Shown: positions 1-60,695, counted from the stretch's first letter. The stretch: 64,000 bases of DNA from Patescibacteria group bacterium (GCA_041650995.1 JBAZJZ010000001.1:227166-291165); one strand, 5' to 3'. Program-made: numbers and translations. Notes: generated by a model from the sequence alone, not told the origin.

Positions 1-55
1 TCCGCCACTTTTTCAATCTACCAAACCGTGGTATAATTTAGAAACAAGATTTGAG

Positions 56-67
56 TTGTGGATAACT
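56..67. repeat. 12-bp direct repeat TTGTGGATAACT (left copy). It contains a perfect DnaA-box complement TGTGGATAA.
   Basis: An identical 12-mer recurs at 1996-2007. The two copies flank the integrase module. Confidence 0.5.
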
Positions 68-97
68 CTAAAAAAGACCTTTATGCTTGTCGGGGCC

Positions 98-126
98 TTG
101 ACAGAAAAAAAATACTTTGGTAAAAT
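98..126 (+). promoter_or_regulatory. sigma70-like promoter TTGACA-17-TAAAAT
   Basis: Perfect -35 at 98-103 and -10 TAAAAT at 121-126 with a 17 nt spacer. A stem-loop AACGGCCC..GGGCCGTT lies about 165-191. Confidence 0.4.
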
Positions 127-196
127 TGTGCATACCGATATTTTGTGTTTTGAGTAAAACGAAACGGCCCCCATTTTAGTGAGGGCCGTTAAGTGT

Positions 197-469
197 TTAG
201 CCGGCGGTGGAATCAGCAGTTTGCTCTGCTGGTTCTTTTTTTACATAACGCTTTTTGGCGTCAACATAAAAACAGAACGCACGCTTGCCATGGTCTTTCG
301 CATAAATGCGAACGCCATTGCGAAGCGTTATCCACGGACGGCAAATCATTGCCATACTCGTGTTTGTTATCCGGCGCTTAAACATGACCGGTTTGCCGTA
401 CCCCGGATTTAATTTAAGATAGATAACAAAACCACCGGGCGCAGACGCCCCGCCGTTTCTGTTTTTCAC
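197..469 (-). CDS. hypothetical 90 aa protein in a moderately GC-enriched segment next to the integrase. Possible element cargo.
   Basis: Open frame only. No recognised domain. Confidence 0.25.
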   Translation of the reverse strand: MKNRNGGASAPGGFVIYLKLNPGYGKPVMFKRRITNTSMAMICRPWITLRNGVRIYAKDHGKRAFCFYVDAKKRYVKKEPAEQTADSTAG

Positions 470-781
470 ATTTGCGGCGAGTGTTCATAGCACTCCACAA
501 ACCCGAAGGTCTGGCGGAGCGACCACGCTCGATGGTTTATCTCTTTTATGGCGATTGAGATAATCCTGCGCCTCGTCTATGAAACGAGAATAAATTGTTT
601 AACCAACTAATTTTAGATTAACACAACCCCTAAAAAAGCGCAAGGCCTATCAAGACCCTGGGAAGAAAATCGCTCTTAAAATCATAACCACTCCCGCGGC
701 AATTACAAACCATGCAAGAAGATCAAGAAAGCTGCGGCTGTCGCGCGTAAGTCGTGGCATATTCTTTAATTTTACCGCACC

Positions 782-1717
782 CTAAATTTTTATCAAGAGT
801 CCTTGCCGGAGATTTGATGAACCATAAATTTTATGGTACTCCCGCTCGATGTCTTTGTCTTCGGGATGAATGTAAATCTGGGTTGAGCGGATACTCGCAT
901 GGCCTAAGATTTTTTGTAAATATACCAAGTTAATATTATTCTTTGATCCCAGCGTGGCGAATCCGTGCCGGCAGGAGTGAGGAGTAATTTTTTTATCTAT
1001 GCCACATTTCGTGCGTAGCCGACGAAAGAGGCGCTGGACCGCGCAAGGGCTGATTCTGTTTCCATAATTATTGGCATCAAGCGCGATGAAAAGTGCTCCG
1101 GCTTCCACGTGCTCCCGCTCGAGCATTTTCTGCCGCACGTCGAGCCATCTATACAAAACATCGTTTGTCATCTCATCCCAGAAAATCTGACGTCTGTGAT
1201 TTTTTCTTTTGAACGTTTTGATCTCAGTCATTTTTTTATTAAGGTTTATGTCGTCAGCATTGATGCTTAAAAGTTCGCCAATCCGCACGCCGGTCGCAAA
1301 GAGTAAAGAGACGATTGTTTTGTCGCGCAGATCCCTGGGGAAAAACTCGTCGAAATAATTTATCATTCTTAAAAATTCATCGGGCGTTAAACATTCGTGA
1401 GATTTAACGTCGTATCTGTTCGGGATCGGGATCAGCCCTTCGGCATAGGGAACGAGGCCTTGCTGATGGAGCCAGTGCCAGAGGGAGCGCGTGGCCGTGA
1501 TGTAGTGATAGCGCGTGCCACTATGCAGCCCCCGGTTTTCAAGCCACAAAAGAAAATTGGCAAAATCAGAGACGGTCAATTTTAAAATTTCTTTTCTCGT
1601 CAGGTCGAGCCAAATCTCAAGCTGGCGCAGCGCCCAAAAATACGATGAGACGGTCGCTCCCGAATGGCCGGCGCGGAGCCACACTAAGAATTGACTGATG
1701 ATTTCTTTGTTGACCAT
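782..1717 (-). CDS. tyrosine site-specific recombinase of the XerC/XerD/phage-integrase family
   Basis: The C-terminal catalytic signature HSCRHGFAT...LGHASIRSTQIYIH carries the R..H-x-x-R..Y active-site residues. Confidence 0.85.
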   Translation of the reverse strand: MVNKEIISQFLVWLRAGHSGATVSSYFWALRQLEIWLDLTRKEILKLTVSDFANFLLWLENRGLHSGTRYHYITATRSLWHWLHQQGLVPYAEGLIPIPNRYDVKSHECLTPDEFLRMINYFDEFFPRDLRDKTIVSLLFATGVRIGELLSINADDINLNKKMTEIKTFKRKNHRRQIFWDEMTNDVLYRWLDVRQKMLEREHVEAGALFIALDANNYGNRISPCAVQRLFRRLRTKCGIDKKITPHSCRHGFATLGSKNNINLVYLQKILGHASIRSTQIYIHPEDKDIEREYHKIYGSSNLRQGLLIKI

Positions 1718-1810
1718 AGTTTTTGTTTTTGTTATTATTTAATTAAAGAACATTCAACTTTACAATAGGCAAGGAATTTGTCAAATAGTTTAGTTGATTT
1801 TTGGTTGATA

Positions 1811-1839
1811 TTGACTTTTAAAATTCAATTTATTATAAT
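1811..1839 (+). promoter_or_regulatory. sigma70-like promoter TTGACT-17-TATAAT
   Basis: Consensus hexamers sit directly upstream of the small HTH ORF. Confidence 0.4.
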
Positions 1840-1847
1840 AAATTTAT

Positions 1848-1994
1848 ATGAGAAAAAGTGCTTTACACAAAGCGATTATTTTCCTTTATTTTTGCGAAGG
1901 ATACACGATCACGGAGATTCACCGCGAGTTGAAAAAAATATCAAAACAGGCCGTCCATAAAGTTGTTAAAAATCGGTTGACGGAATTAAAATAG
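1848..1994 (+). CDS. 48-aa putative helix-turn-helix protein. It could be an Xis/regulator-like partner of the integrase.
   Basis: An ATG ORF, MRKSALHKAIIFLYFCEGYTITEIHRELKKISKQAVHKVVKNRLTELK, has a predicted HTH (YTITEI..ISKQAVHK). It ends 1 nt before the right direct repeat. It is too short for the ORF track. Confidence 0.35.
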   Translation: MRKSALHKAIIFLYFCEGYTITEIHRELKKISKQAVHKVVKNRLTELK

Positions 1995-1995
1995 A

Positions 1996-2007
1996 TTGTG
2001 GATAACT
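1996..2007. repeat. 12-bp direct repeat TTGTGGATAACT (right copy)
   Basis: Identical to 56-67. Confidence 0.5.
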
Positions 2008-2142
2008 TGTGATTTGACAGATCTTTGATGTAGGTGTAAAGTTGAAAAAGAAATTGACAATTGAAGTCCGGAAGTTAAAAAGAGTGTGTAGTGCACCGCA
2101 GTGGCAAAAGAGATAAAGAGCATTTTCATGTTATAATAAAAG

Positions 2143-2167: not shown

Positions 2168-3274
2168 ATGAAATTATCTGAATTTGATTTTAATCTTCCG
2201 AAAAATTTAATCGCCCAAAAACCTGTTTCACCACGCGATGCCTGTCGGCTTATGGTTTTAGATCGTGAAAAAAAATCCATTAAACACGACTGTTTTTGTA
2301 ATCTCGGGAAATATTTTCAGCCGGGCGATCTCTTAGTTTTAAATAATTCAAAAGTTTTGCCAGCGAGGTTGATCGGGAAAAAGGAAACAGGCGGTAGAGT
2401 CGAGATTTTATTATTAAAAAATCTTAAAGCCACTCTGTGGCAATGTCTTGTGGGTTTTGTTCCGGTTACTAAGCAGATTGGGCTGAAAATAAAATTTAGT
2501 AAAAAATTATTTGGTGAAATTATAAAGCGGGCGGGGGACACTGCCGTGATTAAATTTAATTTAGGCGGTGCGAAATTAATGGAACAAATTTTAAAGATAG
2601 GCCAGCCGCCCACGCCGCCATACATAAAAGTTAAAAGTGAAAAGTCAAAAGTGAAAAGTTGTTATCAAACGGTATACGCCGAGAAAATGGGTTCTGCGGC
2701 AGCTCCGACGGCAGGTATGCATTTTACGAAGTCATTGATGAATAAACTGAAGAAGATGGGCGTAGAGATTCAGTATGTTACGCTCCACGTCGGGCTTGGT
2801 ACTTTTCAACCGGTAAAAGAGGAAGATATTACCAAGCACAAAATTCACAGCGAATATTTTGAATTGGATAAAAAAACCGCCGAGCGGTTAAACAATGCCA
2901 AGCGCGCCGGTCGGCGGATTATTGCTTGCGGGACAACTACAGCGCGGGTTTTGGAAAGCTGTTCTAAATTATTCCCTGAGTCCTTCGACGCGGCTCAGGA
3001 TAAACTCCGCGTAGCGGTGGAGTCGAGGGGCGGCCTTCGACAGGCTCAGACCATAATAAAACCGCAAACCGGTGAGACAAATATTTTTATTTACCCCGGA
3101 TATAAATTTAAATTTGTTGACGCCTTGATAACTAACTTTCACGTGCCCAAATCAACTTTGATAATGCTCGTTGCGGCTTTCGCCGGGAAAAAGTTTGTTG
3201 ACCGCGCATATAAAATTGCTATAAAGAAAAAATACAGATTTTACTCCTTCGGCGATGCAATGCTGATTTTGTAA
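2168..3274 (+). CDS. queA: S-adenosylmethionine:tRNA ribosyltransferase-isomerase
   Basis: The N-terminal MKLSEFDFNLPKNLIAQKP and overall length match the QueA family. Confidence 0.9.
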   Translation: MKLSEFDFNLPKNLIAQKPVSPRDACRLMVLDREKKSIKHDCFCNLGKYFQPGDLLVLNNSKVLPARLIGKKETGGRVEILLLKNLKATLWQCLVGFVPVTKQIGLKIKFSKKLFGEIIKRAGDTAVIKFNLGGAKLMEQILKIGQPPTPPYIKVKSEKSKVKSCYQTVYAEKMGSAAAPTAGMHFTKSLMNKLKKMGVEIQYVTLHVGLGTFQPVKEEDITKHKIHSEYFELDKKTAERLNNAKRAGRRIIACGTTTARVLESCSKLFPESFDAAQDKLRVAVESRGGLRQAQTIIKPQTGETNIFIYPGYKFKFVDALITNFHVPKSTLIMLVAAFAGKKFVDRAYKIAIKKKYRFYSFGDAMLIL

Positions 3275-3275
3275 A

Positions 3276-3304
3276 TTGACTAAAAAATAAAAATAGGTTT
3301 AAAT
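3276..3304 (+). promoter_or_regulatory. promoter TTGACT-17-TTAAAT of cassette A1
   Basis: The -35 starts 2 nt after the queA stop codon. Confidence 0.45.
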
Positions 3305-3325
3305 GTAAGCAGAAGGAGGGCGCTG

Positions 3326-3529
3326 ATGGTCGAAAAAAACGAAGAATGTCCACGGGGCGAGAAGCAGCAACTGGTCGCGGAAAATATGCCCGAAGGATGG
3401 CGGTCCAGCACCAGGAAGGTGATGGTGGTCGTGGTTCCACTGAAACCGTCGCCGTTTGTCGTGCCCGAAGAAAGCTACGACTTCTCGCTCCCGCTTTTCG
3501 GAGGAACGATTCCGCACCGCGGGAGCTGA
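3326..3529 (+). CDS. hypothetical 67 aa protein, GC-rich (cassette A1)
   Basis: The RBS GAAGGAGGG sits 6 nt upstream of the ATG. There is an abrupt composition shift from the flanks. Confidence 0.4.
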   Translation: MVEKNEECPRGEKQQLVAENMPEGWRSSTRKVMVVVVPLKPSPFVVPEESYDFSLPLFGGTIPHRGS

Positions 3530-3550
3530 CAGTTTTTTTGTGCCATCACT

Positions 3551-3585
3551 GGCGCTGAGATGGAATTTGTCTCGCGCCTTTTTTA
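3551..3585 (+). terminator. intrinsic terminator GGCGC..GCGCC followed by TTTTTT
   Basis: GC stem with a T-tract. Confidence 0.5.
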
Positions 3586-3596
3586 TAAAATTAACC

Positions 3597-3624
3597 TTGA
3601 CAAATTATTTTTTTCTGTTAATCT
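3597..3624 (+). promoter_or_regulatory. promoter TTGACA-16-TAATCT of cassette A2
   Basis: Consensus hexamers. Confidence 0.45.
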
Positions 3625-3681
3625 AAAATTAGAACCTTAGGACAAAATTTCCCCATCAACAAAAAGAAGGGAGAGATTTTC

Positions 3682-4002
3682 ATGCGCCAGGAAACGACAG
3701 GAGCTCATTGTCTGGAGACTCGTTCCGATAACGGAGGTTCAAGGAAGAGAAGGGAGCTCATGGAAAAACGCCGCGTCTTACGCTTGCTGACCATCCCGGA
3801 AATCAAGCGAAAGCTTTTGCTGCGTAAGGCGTATAGGAGTCTTTCACGCTGGCAGCGCTTCATGCACGACATGGGTTTGGCCGAATTCCTTCTTAAAGAT
3901 GGAGAGATTCACCCAGAGTATCGCATAAACTGGGTTAGTGTCGTTGTTTGGGTTTTTACGCTTTGTCTTGCTGCGTTTTACATCTTCAGGATGCTTTTGT
4001 AG
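3682..4002 (+). CDS. hypothetical 106 aa protein with a C-terminal transmembrane helix, GC-rich (cassette A2)
   Basis: RBS AAGAAGGGAGAG. The C-terminal hydrophobic stretch is VSVVVWVFTLCLAAFYIF. Confidence 0.5.
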   Translation: MRQETTGAHCLETRSDNGGSRKRRELMEKRRVLRLLTIPEIKRKLLLRKAYRSLSRWQRFMHDMGLAEFLLKDGEIHPEYRINWVSVVVWVFTLCLAAFYIFRMLL

Positions 4003-4040
4003 CAAGGCGGAGAGGCCTAACCAACTCGAAGACACAACTA

Positions 4041-4071
4041 CCGACGCGGCTATTTTTGCGTCGGTTTTTTT
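4041..4071 (+). terminator. intrinsic terminator CCGACGC..GCGTCGG followed by TTTTTTT
   Basis: The same CGACGCG/CGCGTCG stem occurs at 5019 and 36463. Confidence 0.55.
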
Positions 4072-4072
4072 A

Positions 4073-4101
4073 TTGATTTTTTTCATCCATCGTGGTAAAG
4101 T
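4073..4101 (+). promoter_or_regulatory. promoter TTGATT-17-TAAAGT of cassette A3
   Basis: The flank resembles the wzx promoter region at 5049-5077. Confidence 0.4.
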
Positions 4102-4128
4102 AGGTTGATTTCCTAAAGGAGGAAGGGA

Positions 4129-5004
4129 ATGCGAAAACAGGAACCGCCTCTCGGCGATACGAGTGAATGTGCTCGCCTGACTAAGGCAGAACTCGTCAAT
4201 TTGGGTGTTGTACTTTCCGCCTTGCGCTCTTTTCGGGGTGACCGGCGGCAGCATATCGCCTATGTTACCATGCCAATCACCGGCGGCCGGCGCCTGTACG
4301 ACACTTTGAAAAAGCACGGCGCAAAAAGTGCTACTGAACTTGCGGTCAAGATCGGGGACGAGGCGTTTTACGGACTTGTGGTAAGGCCCAACATTGAAGA
4401 CGGGGTTGCTCTAGCTGATCGCCTCGGCAGCAGCAAGTCTCTGCTCTTTATCGCGCCTTCGGTTTTCGAAGCCAGGTGTTGGCAATGGTCGCAGGATGCC
4501 TACATGTCACTCTGGTATCGCGTTCTGGGCGAAATGGCTGGAGCGCACTACCTCGCGGATGGCTGGGAATACTGCGTCGGCGGCGTGAAAGAAGTAATGT
4601 TTTCTATGGCCATGCAGTGGCGTATCTTCAGGCGTTACAATATCCATGAGATGGCGAGAGCCTGGGGCCTGCAGAATTTCCTTCCCGGCATGAGCGCCAA
4701 AGAGGAAATGGCCGGGTTGGAGCGTATGTGGAGTATCCGCCTTTACGACGAGCGGGGCAAGGAACTTCGCATCGATCAAATTTTGGTAATGGTCGTTCGC
4801 GCAATCAAGGAGCTATCAAGAAACGGCTTGCCATACGAGGATCTGCTTGATCCCGCCTGGAACTTGAAAGCGATGCCAATCTTGTCGCCGATGCTTGGGG
4901 GCGGTTACGGAACTGTGCCGGCTATAACGAGTGTTTACCAAGAGGCGAGAGAAGAATTAGAAGTACTCCTTACCGCTCACAATCGTGGAGGGAAAAAGCG
5001 GTAA
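4129..5004 (+). CDS. hypothetical 291 aa protein, GC-rich (cassette A3)
   Basis: RBS AAAGGAGGAAGGGA. No recognisable family. Confidence 0.6.
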   Translation: MRKQEPPLGDTSECARLTKAELVNLGVVLSALRSFRGDRRQHIAYVTMPITGGRRLYDTLKKHGAKSATELAVKIGDEAFYGLVVRPNIEDGVALADRLGSSKSLLFIAPSVFEARCWQWSQDAYMSLWYRVLGEMAGAHYLADGWEYCVGGVKEVMFSMAMQWRIFRRYNIHEMARAWGLQNFLPGMSAKEEMAGLERMWSIRLYDERGKELRIDQILVMVVRAIKELSRNGLPYEDLLDPAWNLKAMPILSPMLGGGYGTVPAITSVYQEAREELEVLLTAHNRGGKKR

Positions 5005-5018
5005 TAGCGGAGGAGTTG

Positions 5019-5047
5019 CGACGCGGATAACGGTTCGCGTCGTTTTT
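5019..5047 (+). terminator. intrinsic terminator CGACGCG..CGCGTCG followed by TTTTT
   Basis: GC stem with a T-tract. Confidence 0.55.
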
Positions 5048-5048
5048 A

Positions 5049-5077
5049 TTGATTTTTTCTCTAAATCGCGGTAAAAT
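5049..5077 (+). promoter_or_regulatory. promoter TTGATT-17-TAAAAT for the flippase gene
   Basis: Hexamers and spacing. Confidence 0.4.
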
Positions 5078-5083
5078 TGGATA

Positions 5084-6571
5084 ATGCTTATGCCTCAAGA
5101 ATCAGAAAAAATCGCGAGAAATACTATCTATTTAACTATTGCCACGGTCGGACAAAAAGTCCTGGCTTTTTTGTATTTTATTTTAATTGCCCGCTTAGCC
5201 GGAGTTGAGGGCACGGGAAAATATTTTTTTGTTGTTTCTTTTACTACGATTTTTTCTATTTTTGTTGATCTTGGCCTTTCCTCAGTTTTGATTCGCGAGA
5301 CGGCGAAGAAGAGAGAAATGGCGGGAAAATATTTGGGAAATATTTTGGGAGCAAAAGTTGTTTTAGGTGTGCTCGCATATCTCGCGGTTGTTTTTGTGAT
5401 TAATATCATAGATTATCCGGCGGCGACCAAATTGATGGTTTATCTTTCCGGGATTGTGATGCTTTTGGATTCTTTCAACGTAACTTTTTACGCAGTTTTC
5501 CGTGGCCATCAAAATTTGCGATATGAATCAGTTGGCGTGGTTGTGAGTGAAATTTTGATAATCATCTTTGGCGGCGTAAGTTTAATTCTTCACGCGCCGT
5601 TATATTTTTTACTGCTTGCCCTAATGTCGGGCAGTCTTTTTAATTTTTTCTTTTCTTCAATTTTACTTTGGAAAAAAACCGACATCCGGCCGCGTTTGAT
5701 GATGGACAAAAGTATTTTAATATCACTTTTTAAAATTGCTTATCCTTTTGCGCTCGCGGGAATTTTTGTAAAAGTTTATTCTTATCTTGATTCAGTTTTG
5801 CTTTCAAAAATGGTGGGGGACATCGCGGTCGGGTTTTGGAGTGTGGCTTATAAACTTACTTACGCCTTTCAGTTTATTCCCATGGCTTTTGCCGCGGCCG
5901 TATTTCCAGCGATGAGCGCATATTATGTTTCTGATAAAACTATGCTCCGGAAAACTTTTGAGCGCGTACTTTTTTATCTAGCAATTTTGGCTCTGCCAAT
6001 TGCTTTTGGTATTTTTTCTTTGGCCGAACCTTTAGTTTTAAAAATTTACGGTGCTTCCTATATTCCGTCGATTTTACCGCTGCAGGTTGCTATTTTTGCC
6101 GTGGTTTTTATATTTTTAAATTATCCGGTCAGCTCGCTTTTAAATGCCACAGATCGCCAGATGGCCAATACTACCATTTTGGGCATTTCCATGTTCGTAA
6201 ATGTCGTTTTAAACGTAATTTTGATACCGAGGTTCTCGTATCTCGGAGCGGCAATTTCCACGGTGATATCCCATACATTACTTTTTATTCTGGGATTAAT
6301 TTTTGTCGGACGAGTGGTGGATTACAATAAAAAATTCATTTTTGGCGCTCTTTTTAAAATTGTTATTTCCGCCGGAGCGATGAGCGCGGTTATAATTTAT
6401 TTGCGGCCGTATGTTTATTGGATATTTTTAGTTCCGGTCGGGGCGGCGATTTATTTTTGCTTATTATTTTTGCTTCGCGGGATGGAGTGGCGCGATGTAA
6501 AAAATATTTTTAAAGCCTTGAAAAAGGAAGAGGCCATGGATATGATTGATGGGAGAAGCGAGAAAATATGA
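5084..6571 (+). CDS. MOP-superfamily polysaccharide flippase (Wzx-like)
   Basis: A 495 aa polytopic membrane protein. Its N-terminus, NTIYLTIATVGQKVLAFLYF, is typical of Wzx/PST-family proteins. Confidence 0.65.
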   Translation: MLMPQESEKIARNTIYLTIATVGQKVLAFLYFILIARLAGVEGTGKYFFVVSFTTIFSIFVDLGLSSVLIRETAKKREMAGKYLGNILGAKVVLGVLAYLAVVFVINIIDYPAATKLMVYLSGIVMLLDSFNVTFYAVFRGHQNLRYESVGVVVSEILIIIFGGVSLILHAPLYFLLLALMSGSLFNFFFSSILLWKKTDIRPRLMMDKSILISLFKIAYPFALAGIFVKVYSYLDSVLLSKMVGDIAVGFWSVAYKLTYAFQFIPMAFAAAVFPAMSAYYVSDKTMLRKTFERVLFYLAILALPIAFGIFSLAEPLVLKIYGASYIPSILPLQVAIFAVVFIFLNYPVSSLLNATDRQMANTTILGISMFVNVVLNVILIPRFSYLGAAISTVISHTLLFILGLIFVGRVVDYNKKFIFGALFKIVISAGAMSAVIIYLRPYVYWIFLVPVGAAIYFCLLFLLRGMEWRDVKNIFKALKKEEAMDMIDGRSEKI

Positions 6572-7692
6572 AAAAATTATTAATCGCAACAATTGAATTT
6601 CCGCCGCAAAGGGGCGGGATCGCGAATTATTTGGCTGGGGTGGCCGGAGCGTTGCCGGCTGATAAGGTCGCGGTTTTAGCGCCGCGACAGAAGGGCGAAG
6701 AAAATTTTGATAATCATGAGCCGTATAAAATTTACCGCAAAAAATTATTTGTGAATTTTTTATGGCCAAAATGGCTGCCGCTCGTTTGGCATTTATGGCG
6801 CGTGGCGCGGCGGGAAAAAATAGAAGTAATTTTAGTCAGCCAAGTTTTACCGGTTGGAACGGTCGCGATGATTGTGAAGAAAATTTTTAAGATTCCGTAT
6901 TTTATTTCCTGTCATGGCATGGATATTTTGACAGCCGCCGGAAATCCGCGGAAGAAAAAGTTGATGAACAAAATTTTAGAACAGGCGAGTGGTGTCGTAG
7001 CAAATAGTGAATTCACAAAAAAAGAGTTAGTAAAACTAGCCGTGCCGGAAAATAAAATCATTATTATTTATCCTTGTCCGGGGAGGATGTCCGGTATTGC
7101 ACCGGAAAGAATTTCTGAAATAAAAAATCGGCTGGGGTTGGCCGATAAAAAAATAATTCTCACGGTTGGGCGGCTCGTGGCGCGCAAAGGGCAAAATAAG
7201 GTAATTGAGGCGATGACAGAGATTTTAAAACATGTGCCAAACGCTATTTATGTAATTGTCGGTGATGGGCTGGAAAGCGAAAAACTAAAAATTCAGAGTG
7301 AAAAATTAAAATTAGAAAATAATATTTTATTTACCGGAGAGATTTCCGAAGAAAAAAAATTGGCCTTTTATCAATTGTGCGATGTGTTTATAATGACGCC
7401 GCGGCAGATTGGGGCGGATGTAGAAGGTTTTGGCACAGTGTATCTTGAAGCAAACCAATTTGGTAAACCGGTCGTAGCCGGAGGAAGCGGCGGCGTGGGT
7501 GAGGCGGTGGCGGACGGTGTGACGGGATTAGTTGTGGATCCGGAAAATATAACTCAAATTGCCGAAGCAGTGATTAAAATATTAACTGATGAAAATTTAG
7601 CAAAAAAAATGGGTGAAGAGGGGAGAGAAAGAGTGGAAAAAGAATTTGAGTGGGAAATTCAGACGGAAAAGTTGAAAAAATTTTTAGATTGA
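6568..7692 (+). CDS. GT4-family glycosyltransferase
   Basis: C-terminal GT-B motif FGTVYLEANQFGKPVVAGGSGG. The start overlaps the flippase stop. Confidence 0.8.
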   Translation: MKKLLIATIEFPPQRGGIANYLAGVAGALPADKVAVLAPRQKGEENFDNHEPYKIYRKKLFVNFLWPKWLPLVWHLWRVARREKIEVILVSQVLPVGTVAMIVKKIFKIPYFISCHGMDILTAAGNPRKKKLMNKILEQASGVVANSEFTKKELVKLAVPENKIIIIYPCPGRMSGIAPERISEIKNRLGLADKKIILTVGRLVARKGQNKVIEAMTEILKHVPNAIYVIVGDGLESEKLKIQSEKLKLENNILFTGEISEEKKLAFYQLCDVFIMTPRQIGADVEGFGTVYLEANQFGKPVVAGGSGGVGEAVADGVTGLVVDPENITQIAEAVIKILTDENLAKKMGEEGRERVEKEFEWEIQTEKLKKFLD

Positions 7693-7717
7693 CATATTAA
7701 AATATAAGTGATAATGT
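7689..7717 (+). promoter_or_regulatory. promoter TTGACA-17-TAATGT of cassette B. The -35 overlaps the GT4 stop codon.
   Basis: Seen in sequence. Confidence 0.45.
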
Positions 7718-7740
7718 GCTCACAGAAAGGAGGGCAAGCA

Positions 7741-8022
7741 ATGTCTTGTCATCACGAGGATTTAGGTCTCGAGGAACTGGAGCAGGTGGAACGAGCGGCG
7801 GTGGCGGCTGGGCTGACGGCTGAGCGGGCTGCGGCGGTCACCAGGGATATCAGGCCAGCGCGGGAATTGGCCAAAGAGACCATTGTTCGGTTGGAGCCGC
7901 GGCACATCAGCGGTTTCCAGACGCTCATCGCGATTTTGGAAACGGCTTTGCAAGAAGCGCGTGCCAAGCAGTGGATCAACGAGCCTCGCGACGAGCCGCA
8001 AGCATCTCGGACAGAATCGTGA
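7741..8022 (+). CDS. hypothetical protein of about 93 aa, GC-rich (cassette B). The track ORF 7708..8022 is trimmed to the ATG that has an RBS.
   Basis: RBS AAAGGAGGG sits 7 nt upstream of the ATG at 7741. The upstream ATG at 7708 would lie before the predicted TSS. Confidence 0.5.
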   Translation: MSCHHEDLGLEELEQVERAAVAAGLTAERAAAVTRDIRPARELAKETIVRLEPRHISGFQTLIAILETALQEARAKQWINEPRDEPQASRTES

Positions 8023-8050
8023 GTCGTGTCTATCCGACTACGCATGGTCA

Positions 8051-8080
8051 CTGGCGAACCTTTGGGAACGCCAGTTTTTA
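8051..8080 (+). terminator. intrinsic terminator CTGGCG..CGCCAG followed by TTTTT
   Basis: Stem with a T-tract. Confidence 0.5.
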
Positions 8081-8133
8081 TACAAAAAAATCTCTTCATT
8101 ACGGAGAGTTTTTACGTTTGCGCCAATTTACAT

Positions 8134-16828: not shown

Positions 16829-16840
16829 ACTCAAAAAATT

Positions 16841-16880
16841 AAAAAGAGAGACCCTGGTACGACCGGGGTCTCTTTGTTTC
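16841..16880. terminator. bidirectional terminator AGAGACCC..GGGTCTCT flanked by A- and T-runs
   Basis: Lies between convergent genes. Confidence 0.55.
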
Positions 16881-16899
16881 TGTCCTCCTTGTTGGGTAA

Positions 16900-17475
16900 T
16901 TACGCTGCCGCCTCCTTTTCCGGGAAGAAGATGGAAGCGTTGTCTCCGGGAAGGAAGCCCCTTGACTTGTCTCCAAGCCAAAGGGTGACGCGCGCGACGT
17001 TCTGCGCGCGATTGTCTTTCCAGACGATTCTCTTGGCGTAGGAGTGCTCATCGAACTCGGAAACCGGAGAAAGCGGCAGGATGTACTTCTGGCCGAAGAT
17101 CCTGACTTTCTTCAGTCCGTCCGTGACACACTCGATCCCGAGGTTCTGGCCTTGTGGAAAAACGACCACCCGCAAGTCGCGGAAGATACTCTCGTCTTGG
17201 GTGCTTGTCAAAACCAAAACGAGGCTGTAATGGCGCTCGAAGACGTAGAGCGCTAGGTATTCCGTTTCTTGGAGCCAGGTCTCATGCGTCGGCTCAGGTT
17301 CGAGGAATTCGATATCATCAACCGCCCTCGTGTACGGAGCGACGCAGGTTGCCGTGTGTCGCTTCTTGTTGCCCCTTCTGTCGCGCAAGGCGCGGATACA
17401 GACGGCAAGCGAAGAGACGAGCCAGGCGAAGAAAGTCGTGATCCCAGCCCAGATTCCGAGAAAGAACCGCTTCAT
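16900..17475 (-). CDS. hypothetical 191 aa protein with an N-terminal TM/signal segment, GC-rich (cassette C)
   Basis: RBS AAAGGAGGT sits 5 nt upstream of the ATG. The N-terminal hydrophobic stretch is FFLGIWAGITTFFAWLVSSLAV. Confidence 0.55.
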   Translation of the reverse strand: MKRFFLGIWAGITTFFAWLVSSLAVCIRALRDRRGNKKRHTATCVAPYTRAVDDIEFLEPEPTHETWLQETEYLALYVFERHYSLVLVLTSTQDESIFRDLRVVVFPQGQNLGIECVTDGLKKVRIFGQKYILPLSPVSEFDEHSYAKRIVWKDNRAQNVARVTLWLGDKSRGFLPGDNASIFFPEKEAAA

Positions 17476-17572
17476 CGTACACCTCCTTTACGATGGAAGG
17501 TGCGAGGCGAAATTGGCGTTGGCTAAAAGCAGAATCGCCCAGCCATACAAGCCACGCTTCGCAGCTGTTTAC

Positions 17573-17599
17573 TTTATATTATATTACGGGATTTGTCAA
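17573..17599 (-). promoter_or_regulatory. promoter TTGACA-15-TATAAA on the minus strand for cassette C
   Basis: Read from the reverse complement of GGGATTTGTCAAGGG. Confidence 0.35.
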
Positions 17600-35228: not shown

Positions 35229-35242
35229 TTTTTTGGTAAATT
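35214..35242 (+). promoter_or_regulatory. promoter TTGACT-17-TAAATT of the island D operon
   Basis: Same architecture as the cassette A1 promoter. Confidence 0.45.
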
Positions 35243-35292
35243 TTAGGCAGTGAGGCGGAAGCCGGGGTCTCCGGGTAGTTGGGATTTTCTCC

Positions 35293-35715
35293 GTGGCTCG
35301 GAGGAGAGAGGAGAGTAAAATAATGGCAGCGGGAAATTCTCGAGTAAGGTATGGTTCAGGTCATTCGACAAGAGAAATGCCCGTTCTTCCGGATTGCCGA
35401 CGGGGCCATGTCTGTATTTCTTCGTCTCGTGGAGCGGGCCATTGTGGCCACTGTGATACGGATTTCATCTGTCCTTCATGCAAACATAATGGCATGAAGA
35501 CCAAGGATTGCGAACCGCCTGCCTTCATCCTGCAGTGTCCCCGATGTCAACACGAAGAACGGATTCACTGGGTTGAGTTTGACATCCAGTGTCCCCGATG
35601 CGGATGTAAAAACGCTTCCGGGACATATTCGAGGTTGCTGGAACCGATCATTCAATGCCCGGACTGCGGACCGAGTAGGGGGGGTGTCGGTCGTGCAGAA
35701 AAGGAGGGGAAATGA
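35293..35715 (+). CDS. multi-zinc-ribbon protein with five CxxC-type pairs, GC-rich (D1). The start is probably the ATG at 35323, behind a GGAGGAGAGAGGAGAG RBS.
   Basis: CGHC..CPSC, CPRC..CPRCGC and CPDCG pairs. Confidence 0.55.
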   Translation: MARRREESKIMAAGNSRVRYGSGHSTREMPVLPDCRRGHVCISSSRGAGHCGHCDTDFICPSCKHNGMKTKDCEPPAFILQCPRCQHEERIHWVEFDIQCPRCGCKNASGTYSRLLEPIIQCPDCGPSRGGVGRAEKEGK

Positions 35716-35933
35716 GCAAACTGCCTGGAAGGCAAGAAGAGGGAAAAATTCCATCCTGGTTTTTGGACGGTCAAGGCCAGATTGGTTGCACGGCAATCGG
35801 AGGCAATCCTCCGTCGACTCTTCTGCACATACCCCCTGTTTTAGAGGGTGTGGATGTGGAACAAGCCTGGTGGCCAAAAAATGGGCTGGGAGGCGATTAT
35901 GAGTTGCTTCCCTGGCTGACGCGCCCAATTTGA
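35712..35933 (+). CDS. hypothetical 73 aa protein (D2)
   Basis: Overlaps the D1 stop in an ATGA. RBS AAGGAGGGG. Confidence 0.45.
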   Translation: MSKLPGRQEEGKIPSWFLDGQGQIGCTAIGGNPPSTLLHIPPVLEGVDVEQAWWPKNGLGGDYELLPWLTRPI

Positions 35934-35954
35934 ACAAAAGAAGGGGAAGACAAG

Positions 35955-36221
35955 GTGGCAAGAAAATCTGGACGTCGTAAGAACATCTTCAGTGGTCTTG
36001 GAATCTCTCCTGAACAAGAAGCTGCGCTCAGAAGAAGGGCGCCGCCGCTTTCGGAGAGACGGTGGCTCGAGATACAACTGCTCATTGCGCGGGATGCGTT
36101 GGCCGACAGTTTTCCCCTGGAACCGATTTTTGTCGTTCCGCCAATCGTGGGACGCGAAGAGCGCAAGCCGCGAAGATCGATTCTGATCGACAACTTCTCC
36201 GGAGTAGAAAGGCTTCGCTAG
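35955..36221 (+). CDS. hypothetical 88 aa protein (D3), GTG start
   Basis: RBS GAAGGGGAAG. Arg-rich. Confidence 0.4.
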   Translation: MARKSGRRKNIFSGLGISPEQEAALRRRAPPLSERRWLEIQLLIARDALADSFPLEPIFVVPPIVGREERKPRRSILIDNFSGVERLR

Positions 36222-36234
36222 GGAGAAGAACTAC

Positions 36235-36462
36235 GTGAGTGAAGACGCTAATTTAAAAGAGCGCGAAGAAGCTTTGCGCCAACGACTTGTTACCTGGGCA
36301 GCACTTACTCCGGAGGAACGTCTGGATGCGAGGGTAAAAAGACTTCGTTTGTGGAAGCGACTCGAGGAAGAAGCCACCGGTGTCTGCAGTCGCGAAGCTG
36401 GTCTGCCCGGTGACTGGGATATTCCTTGCCGACCCGACGTGGAGTTTAAGGAGGTGGATTAG
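36235..36462 (+). CDS. hypothetical 75 aa charged helical protein (D4), GTG start
   Basis: RBS GGGAGAAG. Sequence EERLDARVKRLRLWKRLEEEA. Confidence 0.4.
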   Translation: MSEDANLKEREEALRQRLVTWAALTPEERLDARVKRLRLWKRLEEEATGVCSREAGLPGDWDIPCRPDVEFKEVD

Positions 36463-36493
36463 CCGACGCGAAAGAGGAAGCGTCGGTTTTTTT
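36463..36493 (+). terminator. intrinsic terminator CCGACGCG..CGCGTCGG followed by TTTTTTT
   Basis: Same stem family as 4041 and 5019. Confidence 0.55.
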
Positions 36494-36521
36494 ATTATCT
36501 GATTTTTGCTATAATTAAAGT

Positions 36522-40613: not shown

Positions 40614-40628
40614 AAGTATTTAAAAATT

Positions 40629-40654
40629 ACGGCCGAAAAAGCCGTGGTTTTTTT
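40629..40654 (+). terminator. clpB terminator ACGGC..GCCGT followed by TTTTTTT
   Basis: Stem with a T-tract. Confidence 0.5.
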
Positions 40655-40656
40655 AT

Positions 40657-40704
40657 AAAAAAAGACCCGACTCGGAAGATATTTCAGTCTCTTCACGAGT
40701 CGGG
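40657..40704 (-). terminator. minus-strand terminator CCCGACTCG..CGAGTCGGG for the island E operon
   Basis: An A-run precedes the stem on the + strand, which gives a T-tract on the - strand. Confidence 0.5.
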
Positions 40705-40722
40705 GTGACTCCAGTCTGGGAG

Positions 40723-40914
40723 TCAGCAGGGTCTAAACGCGATGGGTTCGCGCCGCCAGCCGAAACCGTCCGTCATCTTCTCGCTTCTCCCCCCTTCGCG
40801 AAGCGCGCCGTCCTGTGGTGCACCACAAAAGGCAATCGCAACCGGCGGTGGGGACGAAAAGAGCCGTGCCAGGTTTCGCGTGACGAAGTGCGCGAACAGT
40901 CCAGCACTTAGCAT
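40723..40914 (-). CDS. hypothetical 63 aa protein (E3), GC-rich
   Basis: RBS GGAGGAGG sits 6 nt upstream of the ATG. Confidence 0.35.
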   Translation of the reverse strand: MLSAGLFAHFVTRNLARLFSSPPPVAIAFCGAPQDGALREGGRSEKMTDGFGWRREPIAFRPC

Positions 40915-41016
40915 GCCGGACCTCCTCCGTTCCCTCGGATTTGGGTCAGTGTTAGGTTCCCGCCATTCTTCTTTCTTCGCCCGGGTTTCAGCGCGACGGC
41001 TGACGCTGTCCCGGGC

Positions 41017-41217
41017 TTATGCAGCGAGCGAGCACTCTCCCAAGATCACCTTGGTGAAGACCGCGTCGGACGTGCCTCGGGTTCCAGCTGTTGGCTGGTT
41101 CCCGTGCGCACCAAAAGTGCCAAGGAAGATGTCGGGCAAGGGTTCGAGCCAGAGATCCGGAACGAGCGTCACAGCGACCGCGACGCCAATCATCGGACCG
41201 AGGAAATCCACCATCAC
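41017..41217 (-). CDS. hypothetical 66 aa protein (E2), coupled to E1 by an ATGA overlap
   Basis: An internal ATG of the 126-aa track ORF overlaps the E1 stop. Confidence 0.35.
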   Translation of the reverse strand: MMVDFLGPMIGVAVAVTLVPDLWLEPLPDIFLGTFGAHGNQPTAGTRGTSDAVFTKVILGECSLAA

Positions 41218-41450
41218 CGCTCTCCTTTCGCGAATCGCCTTCTCTCCCCTACGTTCCTTATCTTGCCCCAAACCCACATGATTCCGGAGAGGAATGAGAA
41301 AAAGCACAGGAAGTATGGCCACAGCAAGATCACGATAATGATGAGGGAGACGTCTGACAGATTGGACTTCAATTCCTTCCGGAGTTGCTTCCAACATACC
41401 ACGACTACTAGGGCCGCGACGATCCCGACGATCCAGATTGTGGTTGCCAC
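41214..41450 (-). CDS. hypothetical 78 aa small membrane protein (E1), GTG start
   Basis: Two hydrophobic helices. RBS GAGAGGGAAG. Confidence 0.45.
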   Translation of the reverse strand: MATTIWIVGIVAALVVVVCWKQLRKELKSNLSDVSLIIIVILLWPYFLCFFSFLSGIMWVWGKIRNVGERRRFAKGER

Positions 41451-41513
41451 GTTACTTCCCTCTCTATTTCTACGCGGGCAAAATGCCTCGCGTTAAGGTT
41501 TTAACCTTTTGAT

Positions 41514-41542
41514 TAGATTAAGACAGGATTAATTTTCTGTCA
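41514..41542 (-). promoter_or_regulatory. promoter TTGACA-17-TAATCT on the minus strand for the E operon. Coordinates are approximate.
   Basis: Reverse complement of CTGTCAAGAG...AGATTA. Confidence 0.35.
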
Positions 41543-41599
41543 AGAGATAATTTATAAATAAAAAGAGCCGACCCAAGGTTTGACAACCTATGGATCGGC

Positions 41600-41860
41600 G
41601 GATGACGAGAGTTGGCGTCCTCGAAGTAGTACCGTCAGGTTGACGGTCGCTGAGTAGCGTCAAGGTGTTTGACTACACCGAGGACAGAAGCCTGGTGGCG
41701 CCGGTGGGGTCCGGTCAGGTCGACGTGGACGTCGGGGAAGCGAACATGTGATTTCCGCTGTCGCGCGAACGCGCGAACGGACCGTACCTGATTCCCATCT
41801 GATCCTCCTTCTTCCGTAGGGGGGTTGCCTTTCACCGTGGAAGACTTCCCCACCCCATGA
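41600..41860 (-). other. GC-rich structured transcription unit with three tandem palindromes, a 27-codon ORF (MGIRYGPFARSRDSGNHMFASPTSTST) behind a GAAGGAGGA RBS, and its own imperfect terminator at about 41560-41600
   Basis: The palindromes are CCGTCAggTTGACGG, GACGCT..AGCGTC and GGTGTttgactACACC. Confidence 0.3.
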
Positions 41861-41866
41861 TGTCAA

Positions 41867-41895
41867 TATATTAACACAAGATTGTGTTGTTGTCA
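41867..41895 (-). promoter_or_regulatory. promoter TTGACA-17-TAATAT on the minus strand driving the structured unit
   Basis: It sits back to back with the + strand extended -10 (TGgTAAAAT) of the next gene. Confidence 0.35.
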
Positions 41896-41997
41896 AGAGG
41901 AAAATGTGGTAAAATAGAATCAGCAGTCATTTTGAATTATGGTTTTTGTTTTTAACTTAGCCATAATTCCCGATTCATAATTCATGACTAAAAACCC

Positions 41998-48164: not shown

Positions 48165-48350
48165 TTATCTTGCAAAATTAGCTCTTCGCTTTTTGTTGCA
48201 TTCAAAGCAATAAATTGGTCGATCAGCGGCTGGCTTAAAAGGAAGCTCGGTGATCGGGGCGCCACAGTCAGCGCATTTGAGGTTCATGTCAGCGACATTG
48301 AACATCTGGCGCGGAGGTCTGGGGCCAAAGCCTTGATTGTTGAAGGCCAT
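48165..48350 (-). CDS. 61-aa zinc-ribbon protein (CxxC-x17-CxxC)
   Basis: CADCGAPITELPFKPAADRPIYCFEC. A leader of about 115 nt follows a consensus promoter. Confidence 0.55.
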   Translation of the reverse strand: MAFNNQGFGPRPPRQMFNVADMNLKCADCGAPITELPFKPAADRPIYCFECNKKRRANFAR

Positions 48351-48477
48351 AAGTTACTTGAAGTCTCGGTCATTTTAACTTATGACCTTTTGATATTATC
48401 TCAAGGATCTATCGTTAAAATTGTCCTACTCTTCTGCTCGCTCCCGTCTAAACGAGAGCTTATTTAATTATGTTTAC

Positions 48478-48505
48478 ATTATACACTATTCTATGAATTT
48501 GTCAA
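48478..48505 (-). promoter_or_regulatory. promoter TTGACA-16-TATAAT on the minus strand
   Basis: A perfect consensus. Confidence 0.45.
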
Positions 48506-48508
48506 GAT

Positions 48509-48542
48509 AAAAAGAAGTGGCGTCAACTTGCGTTAACGCCAC
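48509..48542 (-). terminator. minus-strand terminator GTGGCGTcAAC..GTTaACGCCAC for cassette F
   Basis: One mismatch in the stem. T-run on the minus strand. Confidence 0.45.
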
Positions 48543-48580
48543 TAAGAGAAATGATTTTGTAGTTCGGGTGAGGATTTGGG

Positions 48581-48973
48581 CTAGCCCCTCCATGAAACGT
48601 CGGTCAGGGGCACGCTGACCTCTACCTGGCGTTGCGGCCAGCCGTTCTCCGGACCGATCCTCCTGGCCGTCTCGCCCATCGTCTGGACGAATCGGCGAAG
48701 CGCGGAGTCGCTCCGACCCTCCCTCGTTTCGAAGGGAGGCGCGAGGTGCTCCAGAAGATCGGGCGAGAAGCCAATCGTGATCTGGAGCGGATCCTTGATG
48801 CCGTGTTCCTGGCTCGCAGGGATCGAGCTGTCGGGCATCACCGTGATGTCTTCCGGTTTCAATTTCAACCCGAAGTTGAAACGGCGGCATGCTTCGCGGA
48901 GCATCCGCTCGAGCCGTCCACAGCTGAACTCGTGGCTTCCTCCTCCTTTGACCAAAAATTTCACTTTGCCCAT
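48581..48973 (-). CDS. hypothetical 130 aa protein, GC-rich (cassette F)
   Basis: RBS GGGAAGGAGAAAG. The alternative 178-aa and 137-aa frames are R-rich or low complexity. Confidence 0.5.
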   Translation of the reverse strand: MGKVKFLVKGGGSHEFSCGRLERMLREACRRFNFGLKLKPEDITVMPDSSIPASQEHGIKDPLQITIGFSPDLLEHLAPPFETREGRSDSALRRFVQTMGETARRIGPENGWPQRQVEVSVPLTDVSWRG

Positions 48974-49032
48974 CTCTTGTCTTTCTCCTTCCCTTTCCCC
49001 CTACTGCCGCCCTATGCAGCAAACTCGATTAT

Positions 49033-49060
49033 ATTTTATACTTAATTGATATTTTGTCAA
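49033..49060 (-). promoter_or_regulatory. promoter TTGACA-16-TAAAAT on the minus strand for cassette F
   Basis: Consensus hexamers. Confidence 0.45.
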
Positions 49061-50815: not shown

Positions 50816-51094
50816 AGAGAAAACCTCCTGGGGCGAGAACCGACCTGCATCGAGATTTCTCTCTCGGGCGGGGAACGGGGTGACCGGCTGATCATCCTCT
50901 CCTACCTCCCGGAGACCCGCGGCTGGACGATCGAAGGATCGACCGATATCGGTCTGGACGGGATTCCAGCCATTCGCAACCTGGCCGCCGACTGCAGGCT
51001 TTCGGCCGGCGAGGAGCGCCAGATCGGTGAGGACGAAGCGATGAAGATCATCGCCACGCTCGCCGTTTTCTATAAGAGCCAGCCCGTGGGCTAG
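50624..51094 (+). CDS. hypothetical 156 aa protein, GC-rich (cassette H)
   Basis: RBS GAAGGAGGG. Confidence 0.55.
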   Translation: MNSRLERLKVTIAKCEKIEEIFAKHRVRGTEPTHYDDVIAGFDTPARSGFLLRWDLVVKGSAGHRENLLGREPTCIEISLSGGERGDRLIILSYLPETRGWTIEGSTDIGLDGIPAIRNLAADCRLSAGEERQIGEDEAMKIIATLAVFYKSQPVG

Positions 51095-51121
51095 ACCTCG
51101 ACGGACGGAGGAACGAACTAC

Positions 51122-51165
51122 CGCCGACTAAAAAGCGAAAGCTAATTAGTCGGCGTTTTTTTATT
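51122..51165 (+). terminator. terminator CGCCGACTAA..TTAGTCGGCG followed by TTTTTTT
   Basis: 10-bp stem. Confidence 0.55.
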
Positions 51166-52742: not shown

Positions 52743-52789
52743 AAAAACAAGATAAAAAGATCCACCAGGGCACAGCCAGTAGTGGATCA
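52743..52789 (-). terminator. minus-strand terminator GATCCAC..GTGGATC with a T-run
   Basis: Downstream of the GC-rich paralog. Confidence 0.5.
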
Positions 52790-52818
52790 GATGGAAAATA
52801 TTCGGTTGTACTGCTCGG

Positions 52819-53280: not shown

Positions 53281-53372
53281 CTTCCCTCCTCCTTAACTCC
53301 TCCCCCTGTTTATTTTTTCAAAAAATTTAAAAAAATAAACCGAGAGACGTTATCTTTCGGCAAAGAATATTT

Positions 53373-60619: not shown

Positions 60620-60648
60620 ATTCTAGAACATTTTTAAAAAATGGTCAA
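60620..60648 (-). promoter_or_regulatory. promoter TTGACC-17-TAGAAT on the minus strand for the atp operon
   Basis: Seen in sequence. Confidence 0.4.
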
Positions 60649-60649
60649 T

Positions 60650-60695
60650 GCTTTTTAAAAAAAATAGGGGGCCGCCAGAGATGGCAGGCCCCCTC
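60650..60695 (-). terminator. minus-strand terminator GGGGGCC..GGCCCCC for cassette G
   Basis: An A-run on the + strand gives a T-run on the - strand. Confidence 0.5.

Follow-up and report, generated by a model that had tools for sequence, protein, structure and literature searches.

Phage morons, known from the additions of the HK97/HK022 type, are single genes with their own promoter and terminator and a deviating GC content, and they lie between genes that are adjacent in relatives (PMC3594210). A gene of similar anatomy, here called A3 (291 aa), is present in a 64,000-nucleotide stretch of a Patescibacteria group bacterium (JBAZJZ010000001.1:227166-291165). This whole stretch is called the window below, and positions are counted from its first letter. 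A3 is a chromosomal moron-like gene in a hotspot of accessory genes, and as such a variant of known phenomena, namely morons, hotspots of horizontal gene transfer (HGT) and repeat-flanked insertions or deletions. It forms a 976-bp self-contained unit between two diverged copies, about 70 nt each, of a putative terminator-promoter module, and the unit was probably gained or lost by recombination between such modules. We give this reading a probability of about 0.7.

Like morons, the A3 unit has its own predicted terminator and a deviating GC content and is inserted between genes that are adjacent in relatives; its own promoter is a consensus match only. Unlike morons, it sits in a bacterial chromosome between housekeeping genes and has no phage homologue. 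Moreover, it is flanked by a duplicated terminator-promoter module, which to our knowledge is not a defining or usual feature of morons.

The array that contains A3 also resembles integron cassettes, in that single-gene units stand in tandem at one site, vary among relatives and each end in an imperfect inverted repeat. It differs from integrons in having neither the integrase IntI nor an attI site, and its hairpins look like intrinsic terminators and not like attC. Furthermore, the units have their own predicted promoters instead of Pc, and the orientation is opposite in one relative.

Chromosomal HGT hotspots, or flexible genomic islets between core genes, are a concept of comparative genomics. 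The A3 locus fits this concept because one intergenic position holds varied accessory genes, no dedicated mobility gene is involved, and mosaic divergence implies homologous recombination. It departs from it in its very small scale (0.5-1.8 kb, one to three genes), in units that are mostly promoted and terminated individually, and in a genome of only about 0.6-0.9 Mb. The locus is also similar to direct-repeat deletions or duplications (Campbell-type events, unequal crossing-over), with a repeat-bracketed insert, an empty allele carrying one hybrid repeat, and a switch in the best-conserved core. Unlike in typical events of this kind, the repeats extend over only about 70 nt, of which 16 nt form an exact core, and are no more than about 75% identical, so RecA-dependent exchange would be inefficient, and the repeat itself is a predicted functional regulatory module.

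The duplicated putative terminator-promoter module

The gene order at the locus is queA, A1, A2, A3, a Wzx/MurJ-type polysaccharide flippase gene and a glycosyltransferase family 4 (GT4) gene. The junction between A2 and A3 (junction 1, 4040..4109, plus strand) and that between A3 and the flippase gene (junction 2, 5018..5085, plus strand) were recognised as two copies of one module from their alignment, an exact 16-mer and their predicted folds. Junction 1 consists of the A2 terminator hairpin (4040-4065), a T-run, the 16-mer core (4067-4082) with the putative -35 box TTGATT inside it (4073-4078), a 17-nt spacer, a putative extended -10 element TGG-TAAAGT (4093-4101; TAAAGT at 4096-4101) and the first bases of the A3 5' untranslated region (UTR). 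Junction 2 consists of the A3 terminator hairpin (5018-5043), the 16-mer core (5043-5058) with TTGATT at 5049-5054, a 17-nt spacer, the -10 box TAAAAT (5072-5077) and a very short flippase leader. Both share the hairpin stem CGACGCGG…GCGTCG and the exact 16-mer TTTTTATTGATTTTTT, which in the 64-kb window is present at 4067 and 5043 only; their -10 regions resemble each other (ATCGTGGTAAAGT compared with ATCGCGGTAAAAT). The right half of junction 2 is orthologous to the flippase promoter region in the relatives L022, L006, L007 and L008 (AATCGCGGTAAAATTGGATAAT).

The repeat period is 976 bp, and the ungapped identity is 77% over 43 nt, in addition to the hairpin. A3 is thus bracketed by direct repeats, as a reading made from the sequence only had proposed. 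That sequence-only reading had also called the junctions near-identical, which is true only in part: the two around A3 are alike, but their overall identity is only about 75%, and the junctions on the A1 side differ. Indeed, the queA/A1 and A1/A2 junctions are of another type, with the hairpin GGCGCTGAGA…TCTCGCGCC and TTGAC(T/A) candidate promoters. In local alignment, junction 1 against junction 2 scored 47, compared with 14.3±2.3 for 2000 shuffles (maximum 25, none of the 2000 reaching 47; z about 14). The two junctions are more alike than AT-rich promoters in general would be. In a search of both strands of the window, either junction finds its best non-self match in the other.

It might be argued that independent terminator-promoter regions are constrained to look alike, so that the two junctions converged. 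The conserved core, a T-run and a -35 box, is clearly functional; the CGACGC stem also occurs at an unrelated locus (36464), and chance sharing of a 6-nt stem among a few dozen GC-rich terminators was estimated to be not very unlikely. However, the likeness covers the hairpin, T-run, -35 box, spacer ends, -10 box and first UTR bases, the next-best intergenic scores in the 64 kb are 37 and 28 as opposed to 47, and relatives with an empty site have exactly one copy. We consider convergence highly improbable, and pure chance or convergence was rejected on the z value of about 14 together with the single-copy empty sites.

The hairpins at 4040-4065 and 5018-5043 have predicted folding energies of -15.0 kcal/mol (z -4.7) and -16.9 kcal/mol (z -2.7), respectively. 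The putative A3 terminator is an 11-bp GC-rich hairpin followed by T5, that is, a predicted GC-rich stem-loop directly before a U-tract as in rho-independent terminators. It is kept in L001, a more distant relative that also carries A3, where the stem is maintained by a compensatory A-T to G-C change (CCGGCGC/GCGCCGG versus CCGACGC/GCGTCGG). The A3 promoter-like site (TTGATT, 17-nt spacer, TGG-TAAAGT), which is a consensus match only, is kept in L001 as well. Among seven junction copies from five genomes, six share the 16-nt core without change and the one from L006 retains the last 11 nt of it; the ATTGATTTTTT core is unchanged throughout. Because it is invariant across the junction copies, the core (T-run and -35 box) is likely to be held by selection and not by recency.

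The flippase start codon (5084 or 5090) lies just 7-13 nt past the predicted -10 box and lacks a Shine-Dalgarno sequence (window 5072-5092), suggesting that the flippase mRNA may be leaderless or near-leaderless. The A3 copy of the same predicted promoter has gained a 27-nt leader with a strong Shine-Dalgarno sequence instead.

Occupied and empty sites in relatives

Relatives were collected in three ways: with the A3 homologue P0001 (L001-L003), with the flippase (L006-L011), and with the junction motif in metagenomes (L022). L001, L002 and L003 are three assemblies of one more distant relative, and L024 is the same contig as L001. Nine metagenome loci contained the junction motif; two are related (L022 and L024), and the other seven are chance matches in unrelated sequence. 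The order queA, spacer, flippase, GT4 is found in all fetched loci except L010, which has a different upstream gene.

The search for the same junction in other genomes recovered both allelic states. At the occupied site of L001, L002 and L003, A3 (78-79% aa identity) is flanked by the two repeats, and neither repeat copy of L001 has a change in the 16-mer. The sites of L022 and L009 are empty: in L022, queA is followed by A1', A2', one junction and the flippase gene, and in L009 by A2', one junction and the flippase gene. A2 and the flippase gene are adjacent in both, which means that A3 is inserted between neighbours that adjoin each other in relatives. Judged from the repeat period and from colinearity with L022, the missing segment corresponds to 4083..5058 (plus strand), although its register is arbitrary within the 16-nt core. 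This 976-bp unit spans the A3 -10 region, 5' UTR, Shine-Dalgarno sequence, open reading frame (ORF), terminator, T-run and -35 box.

The single junction of L022 is a hybrid. Its left half (the A2 3' end and the hairpin CCGACGCGGCTGTTTTTGCGTCGG) shares 92% identity with junction 1 of the window and its right half (…GCGGTAAAATTGGATAATGCTTATG) 83% with junction 2, and the switch from one to the other sits within the shared ATTGATTTTTT core. When 4083-5058 is removed, the window is colinear with L022 at 88% identity, with one gap in a 100-nt block across the joint. No A3 remnant was found in L006-L011 or L022. Similar to direct-repeat insertions and deletions, the occupied allele has two repeats, the empty allele has one hybrid repeat, and the breakpoint is inside the repeat. 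The proposal that A3 was inserted by duplication of a terminator-promoter segment, or by recombination between such segments, thus gains support, since it predicts a presence/absence polymorphism and one is observed (L022 and L009 versus L001). An assembly artefact was rejected, since the arrangement was recovered in L001, L002 and L003 and a second record (L034) is identical to the window.

Alleles could also be exchanged through the flanks (queA, the flippase gene and shared cassettes), in which case the module would be an old scar of tandem duplication and passive today. The divergence between the window and L022 is mosaic, with synonymous divergence (dS) of 4.9 for A1, 0.26 for A2, 0.75 for the flippase and 1.69 for queA. 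Moreover, this spacer can hold unrelated genes, some of them on the minus strand (L007, L008 and L011), and at a second hotspot the close strain L030 (92-96% nucleotide identity) shows a 585-nt to 60-nt swap without flanking repeats. Flank-mediated replacement really contributes to variation at the hotspot, but alone it does not explain the hybrid junction: L022 and L009 are exact hybrids that switch inside the 16-nt core, which is predicted by a crossover between repeats and is not required by a flank swap. As the sole explanation for A3, flank replacement is unlikely.

Age, direction and mechanism

The right half of junction 1 is 70% identical to the A3 promoter region of L001 (its junction 1) and 63% identical to junction 2 of the window itself, and the A3 terminators of the window and L001 are orthologous. 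Since the A3 promoter copy is closer to that of L001 than to the flippase promoter next to it, the duplication appears to predate the split of the window and L001. A recent duplication was rejected, because orthologous junction copies are closer to each other than paralogous copies are. In both the window and the basal L001, A3 comes after an A2-type gene. Together with the early duplication, this makes an old insertion before the split, followed by loss of A3 in, for example, L022 and L009, the simplest and most likely history on present comparisons. Alternatively, A3 might have been transferred between lineages.

According to the proposed mechanism, the module would consist of an intrinsic terminator hairpin with the CGACGC stem, a T-run overlapping the TTGATT -35 box, a spacer, and the -10 region GGTAAA(G/A)T. 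The left copy would end A2 transcription and drive A3, and the right copy would end A3 transcription and drive the flippase gene. By duplication of the module, the foreign gene would be both expressed and insulated, and the core gene would keep its own promoter and short leader. In addition, the two copies would be able to recombine homologously: crossing-over within the invariant core would delete A3 and leave a hybrid module, as in L022 and L009. In the reverse direction, a resident module could recombine with a circular or linear segment of module plus A3, leading to integration in a Campbell-like manner or by unequal exchange.

Several points weigh against this reading. There are only two occupied lineages and only two cleanly empty sites, and all compared sequences are metagenome assemblies. 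A tree of concatenated queA, flippase and GT4 is star-like with L001 basal, and it does not separate gain from loss. The segmental exchange shown by the A2 dS could swap alleles without any crossover between the repeats. The identity of the core mirrors its function and not the recombination event itself. Finally, the sequence-only reading had given A1, A2 and A3 each a promoter, a ribosome-binding site and a terminator; a Shine-Dalgarno sequence and a hairpin with T-run were found for each unit, but the promoters are consensus matches, and the consensus scan was not enriched over shuffles (11 found, 13.2 expected). The promoter assignments at A1, A2, A3 and the flippase gene are thus plausible but not proven.

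The genomes of Patescibacteria, or candidate phyla radiation (CPR) bacteria, are tiny, and these organisms probably rely on other cells; how they gain and lose accessory genes is little understood. The A3 locus offers a base-pair-resolved example, in which a duplicated module would make a foreign gene expressible and leave the neighbour unharmed, and the same repeats would allow its loss. By itself, the A3 insertion or deletion is a tidy and unsurprising case of repeat-flanked gene gain or loss.

A3 family and origin

A3 is encoded at 4129..5004 (plus strand) by an ORF preceded by the Shine-Dalgarno sequence AAGGAGG (4116-4122). The 77 close homologues returned by the homology search with A3 are hypothetical proteins without exception, and the named sources, apart from a single one, were each a Patescibacteria metagenome-assembled genome (MAG). 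A profile search extended the family to 743 cluster representatives, with a conserved core at about residues 20-165. Invariant residues of A3 include E135, W146 and E155. Judging from these matches, the family appears to be confined to Patescibacteria and to be native, with conserved synteny, in GC-rich lineages: where a Patescibacteria genome has 57-64% GC, the A3 homologue matches its composition and lies in the context pheT…rhodanese-HU-PspC-A3.

In the window, by comparison, A3 has a GC content of 0.54 and a third-position GC (GC3) of 0.60, compared with 0.39-0.42 for queA, the flippase and GT4. GC is 0.50-0.56 across A1-A3 and drops to 0.37-0.40 in the flippase gene. Because the homologues are compositionally native and in core-gene contexts in GC-rich Patescibacteria, the A3 of the window is most likely a xenologue whose source was a GC-richer representative of the phylum. 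Between the window and L001, A3 has a ratio of nonsynonymous to synonymous divergence (dN/dS) of 0.13 and a dS of 1.12, compared with a dS of 1.58 for queA and 1.41 for the flippase. With a low dN/dS and a dS near that of the flanking genes, A3 has evidently been co-inherited for a long time under purifying selection and is thus presumably functional.

The anatomy of the unit and its deviating GC also raise the question of whether A1-A3 are true phage morons or leftover cargo of a prophage or other mobile element, and both the window and L006 do have an integrase-bearing insertion between rpsI and queA. However, no relative of A3 was found in 2.9 million viral contigs or 50,697 phage genomes, and the junction motif was absent from the viral contigs. 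The neighbours are housekeeping genes that are syntenic across relatives, and A3 homologues elsewhere lie in core-gene contexts. We regard a prophage remnant as extremely improbable, and a prophage moron was rejected because there is no phage context.

A3 itself has no Pfam match, and Pfam, NCBIfam and PADLOC scans of A1, A2, A3 and the product of island B (described below) gave no matches. A sequence profile search with A3 against PDB found nothing (best E 0.56). The AlphaFold (AF2) model of A3 has a mean confidence score (pLDDT) of 88; Foldseek comparison of the model with PDB and BFVD gave no match at E ≤ 0.001, and deoxyribosyltransferase-like names recur among the hits. DUF4406 was matched just under the cut-off by 4 of 10 distant members of the A3 family. 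A3 may therefore be remotely related to the nucleoside 2-deoxyribosyltransferase-like superfamily that includes DUF4406, which is a weak lead: all matches to this superfamily (DUF4406, DUF1937, MilB) are below curated or usual significance thresholds. Additional helical segments and an extension at the C-terminus, about 120 aa long, also set A3 apart from the superfamily. An Rfam search of 3000-5400 gave only a chance match to CrcZ (E 0.52).

An NCBI record, apparently of the same MAG, gives A3 as a protein of 166 aa starting from Met126 (P0002, WC445_01325; window 4504-5004). In contrast to this annotation, the full 291-aa ORF is intact in the window and is backed by homologues.

The queA-flippase hotspot

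The window comes from a tiny-genome groundwater Patescibacteria MAG and is a chromosome segment of low GC (40.5% overall, about 38% in core genes). The ENA contig k141_674185 matches the first 9 kb of the window at 100% identity. The closest named relatives of the window, among those fetched via the flippase, are Candidatus Falkowbacteria MAGs. Upstream of the hotspot is the core gene queA (2168..3274, plus strand; PF02547, 6.7e-127), which is syntenic in L001, L006-L009, L011 and L022. Downstream are the core gene for the flippase (5084..6571, plus strand; PF01943, 1.8e-34) and, 3' of it, the GT4 gene (6568-7692, plus strand; PF00534, 1.2e-46), both of which are syntenic in all relatives. Other housekeeping genes near the locus are rpsI and panD.

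The spacer between queA and the flippase gene has six different contents in nine genomes, with a GC content of 0.42-0.58 compared with 0.37-0.42 in the flanks. It contains A1, A2 and A3 in the window, A1' and A2' in L022, A2' alone in L009, two tandem A1-like genes in L006, and a gene for an A2-like tail-anchored protein followed by A3' in L001. L007 and L011 have one unrelated GC-rich gene on the minus strand, and L008 has a different GC-rich gene, also on the minus strand. Since its content differs in almost every genome, the spacer is a hypervariable hotspot of this Falkowbacteria-like lineage. Its contents seem to be mostly self-contained units of promoter, Shine-Dalgarno sequence, ORF and terminator, which are similar to phage morons yet chromosomal.

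A site-specific cassette system, either integron-like or hairpin-targeting, could in principle produce such variation through the Xer-like integrase encoded at 782-1717 or a Y1 transposase. The array architecture is cassette-like, and the same stem marks the 3' boundary of two hotspots and is kept, with one G-U change in L032, despite differing contents. In both the window and L006, the tyrosine recombinase gene is located 1.5 kb upstream. However, the integrase is a generic Xer-like protein that reaches only 67.5 bits against the integron-integrase model TIGR02249 (cut-off 265). It is missing at that position in six of eight relatives (L001, L007-L009, L011 and L022), which are still variable at the hotspot, and queA separates it from the array. 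Furthermore, the units have their own predicted promoters, the hairpins look like plain terminators with U-tracts and non-conserved loops, and the A1-type units use a different hairpin. No attC-like site was seen among the 3' hairpins, which are 8-11-bp stems with a T-run and of two unrelated types, although no formal attC model was run. An integron was rejected because the integrase is neither of the IntI type nor linked to the array, and a site-specific system of any kind is very unlikely.

The Xer-like tyrosine recombinase gene (782-1717, minus strand) is accompanied by non-core sequence upstream of queA, and L006 has the same arrangement (2698-3639, 68% aa identity). Six other relatives have rpsI immediately upstream of queA. 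The arrangement suggests a possible integrated element between rpsI and queA that reaches past the start of the window (window 1-2130).

Two further observations concern the spacer in relatives. In L011, the flippase promoter is separated from the start codon by a miniature inverted-repeat transposable element (MITE)-like element of about 95 nt (L011 5895-5995), whose terminal inverted repeats are GTCATTCTGAGGAGCAAAGCGACGAAGAATCTC … GAGATTCCTCGCTACGCTCGGAATGAC. L006 has several short GC-rich palindromes (CCCCCACACCAATGCATTGGTGTGGGGG and others) after or interrupting the 3' end of queA (L006 5285-5460).

Units A1 and A2

The three ORFs are as the sequence-only reading described them: A1 of 67 aa, A2 of 106 aa with a hydrophobic C-terminus, and A3 of 291 aa. 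The A1 promoter-like site, read from the sequence (3276..3304, plus strand; TTGACT at 3276-3281, 17-nt spacer, TTAAAT), begins 2 nt past the queA stop codon and is kept in L022 (TTGACGAAAAGATAAAAATAGTTTTAAAT). The A1 ORF (3326..3529, plus strand) encodes a small protein and follows the Shine-Dalgarno sequence GAAGGAGGG at 3312-3320. Homologues with 34-35% identity are found at the same site in L006, in two tandem copies, and in L022. The dN/dS of A1 is 0.11, with dS saturated. Its putative terminator (3551..3584, plus strand) is the hairpin GGCGCTGAGA…TCTCGCGCC with T6, for which a folding energy of -15 kcal/mol was predicted (hairpin 3551-3578), and this type of terminator is also present 3' of the A1 homologues in L006 and L022.

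The A2 promoter-like site was likewise read from the sequence (3597..3624, plus strand; TTGACA at 3597-3602, 16-nt spacer, TGT-TAATCT), and the A2 homologues of L009 and L022 are preceded by an almost identical site. The A2 ORF (3682..4002, plus strand) encodes a protein with the C-terminal hydrophobic anchor INWVSVVVWVFTLCLAAFYIF. A homologue search with A2 returned only A2 itself; among the fetched loci, homologues are present in L022 (67-72% aa identity) and L009 (45%), and L001 has a weak tail-anchored counterpart. Between the window and L022 (4005-4322), A2 has a dN/dS of 0.64, and its dS is far below those of the flanking flippase and queA, which points to a recent segmental exchange combined with fast protein evolution.

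A second hotspot and other GC-rich islets

The stem CGACGC…GCGTCG occurs three times in the window, compared with 0.03 occurrences expected. The third occurrence belongs to a possibly related module (36462..36521, plus strand), recognised by stem count and folding, in which the hairpin CCGACGC…GCGTCGG with T7 stands directly before the putative promoter of a radical-SAM gene. It scores 37 against the module around A3, compared with a background of 35, so shared descent of the two is suggestive only and serves as a lead.

This hairpin is at the end of a second hypervariable hotspot (window 35229-36521), located between a LigT-like gene and an AmmeMemoRadiSam radical-SAM gene. In the window it holds four small GC-rich ORFs, one of which encodes a Cys-rich zinc-ribbon-like protein. 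The content differs in every relative (L030-L033), and it always ends in a hairpin with the CCGACGC stem and a T-run before the core promoter; in L032, one changed base gives a G-U pair. In L030 (3155-4000), the 60-nt segment stands in place of window 35676-36260.

It is conceivable, if doubtful, that the A3 unit is one case of a lineage-wide exchange of cassettes that is independent of an integrase and occurs at conserved terminator-promoter landing pads marked by the CCGACGC hairpin. Such pads would lie directly before core promoters, and two are seen, between queA and the flippase gene and between the LigT-like and radical-SAM genes. Recombination within the module would bring in GC-rich, self-expressed genes of other Patescibacteria, shuffle them and remove them again. 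If true, landing pads would be a route of accessory-gene turnover that spares core expression in organisms without classical mobile elements.

Besides A1-A3, the window has at least eight further short GC-rich islets (GC 0.51-0.57, compared with about 0.38-0.40 for the genome), which contain mostly small ORFs without a family. They are located at 7700-8100, 16830-17580, 35230-36520, 40620-41910, 48180-49040, 50570-51170, 52750-53310 and 60630-61800. Because there are at least nine GC-rich islets and two of the hotspots that were checked vary among close relatives, small self-expressed cassettes may be a major part of the flexible genome of this lineage. If this applies generally, accessory genes in CPR metagenomes could be located by means of the modules, which would also be candidate native promoters and terminators for organisms without genetic tools.

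Island B (7708-8022, plus strand), after the GT4 gene, is another variable site. It contains an ORF of 104 aa with a GC content of 0.59, and homologues with 37%-74% identity are found in L001, L006, L007 and L011, with a weak one in L008 and none in L009 and L022. Furthermore, a GC-rich gene for a 153-aa protein (52819-53280, minus strand) adjoins a low-GC paralogue of 144 aa (53373-53807, minus strand), with which it shares motifs such as ILIAHRDC..GGS.AFP. From its composition and position, the GC-rich gene looks like a xenologous copy inserted beside the native gene.

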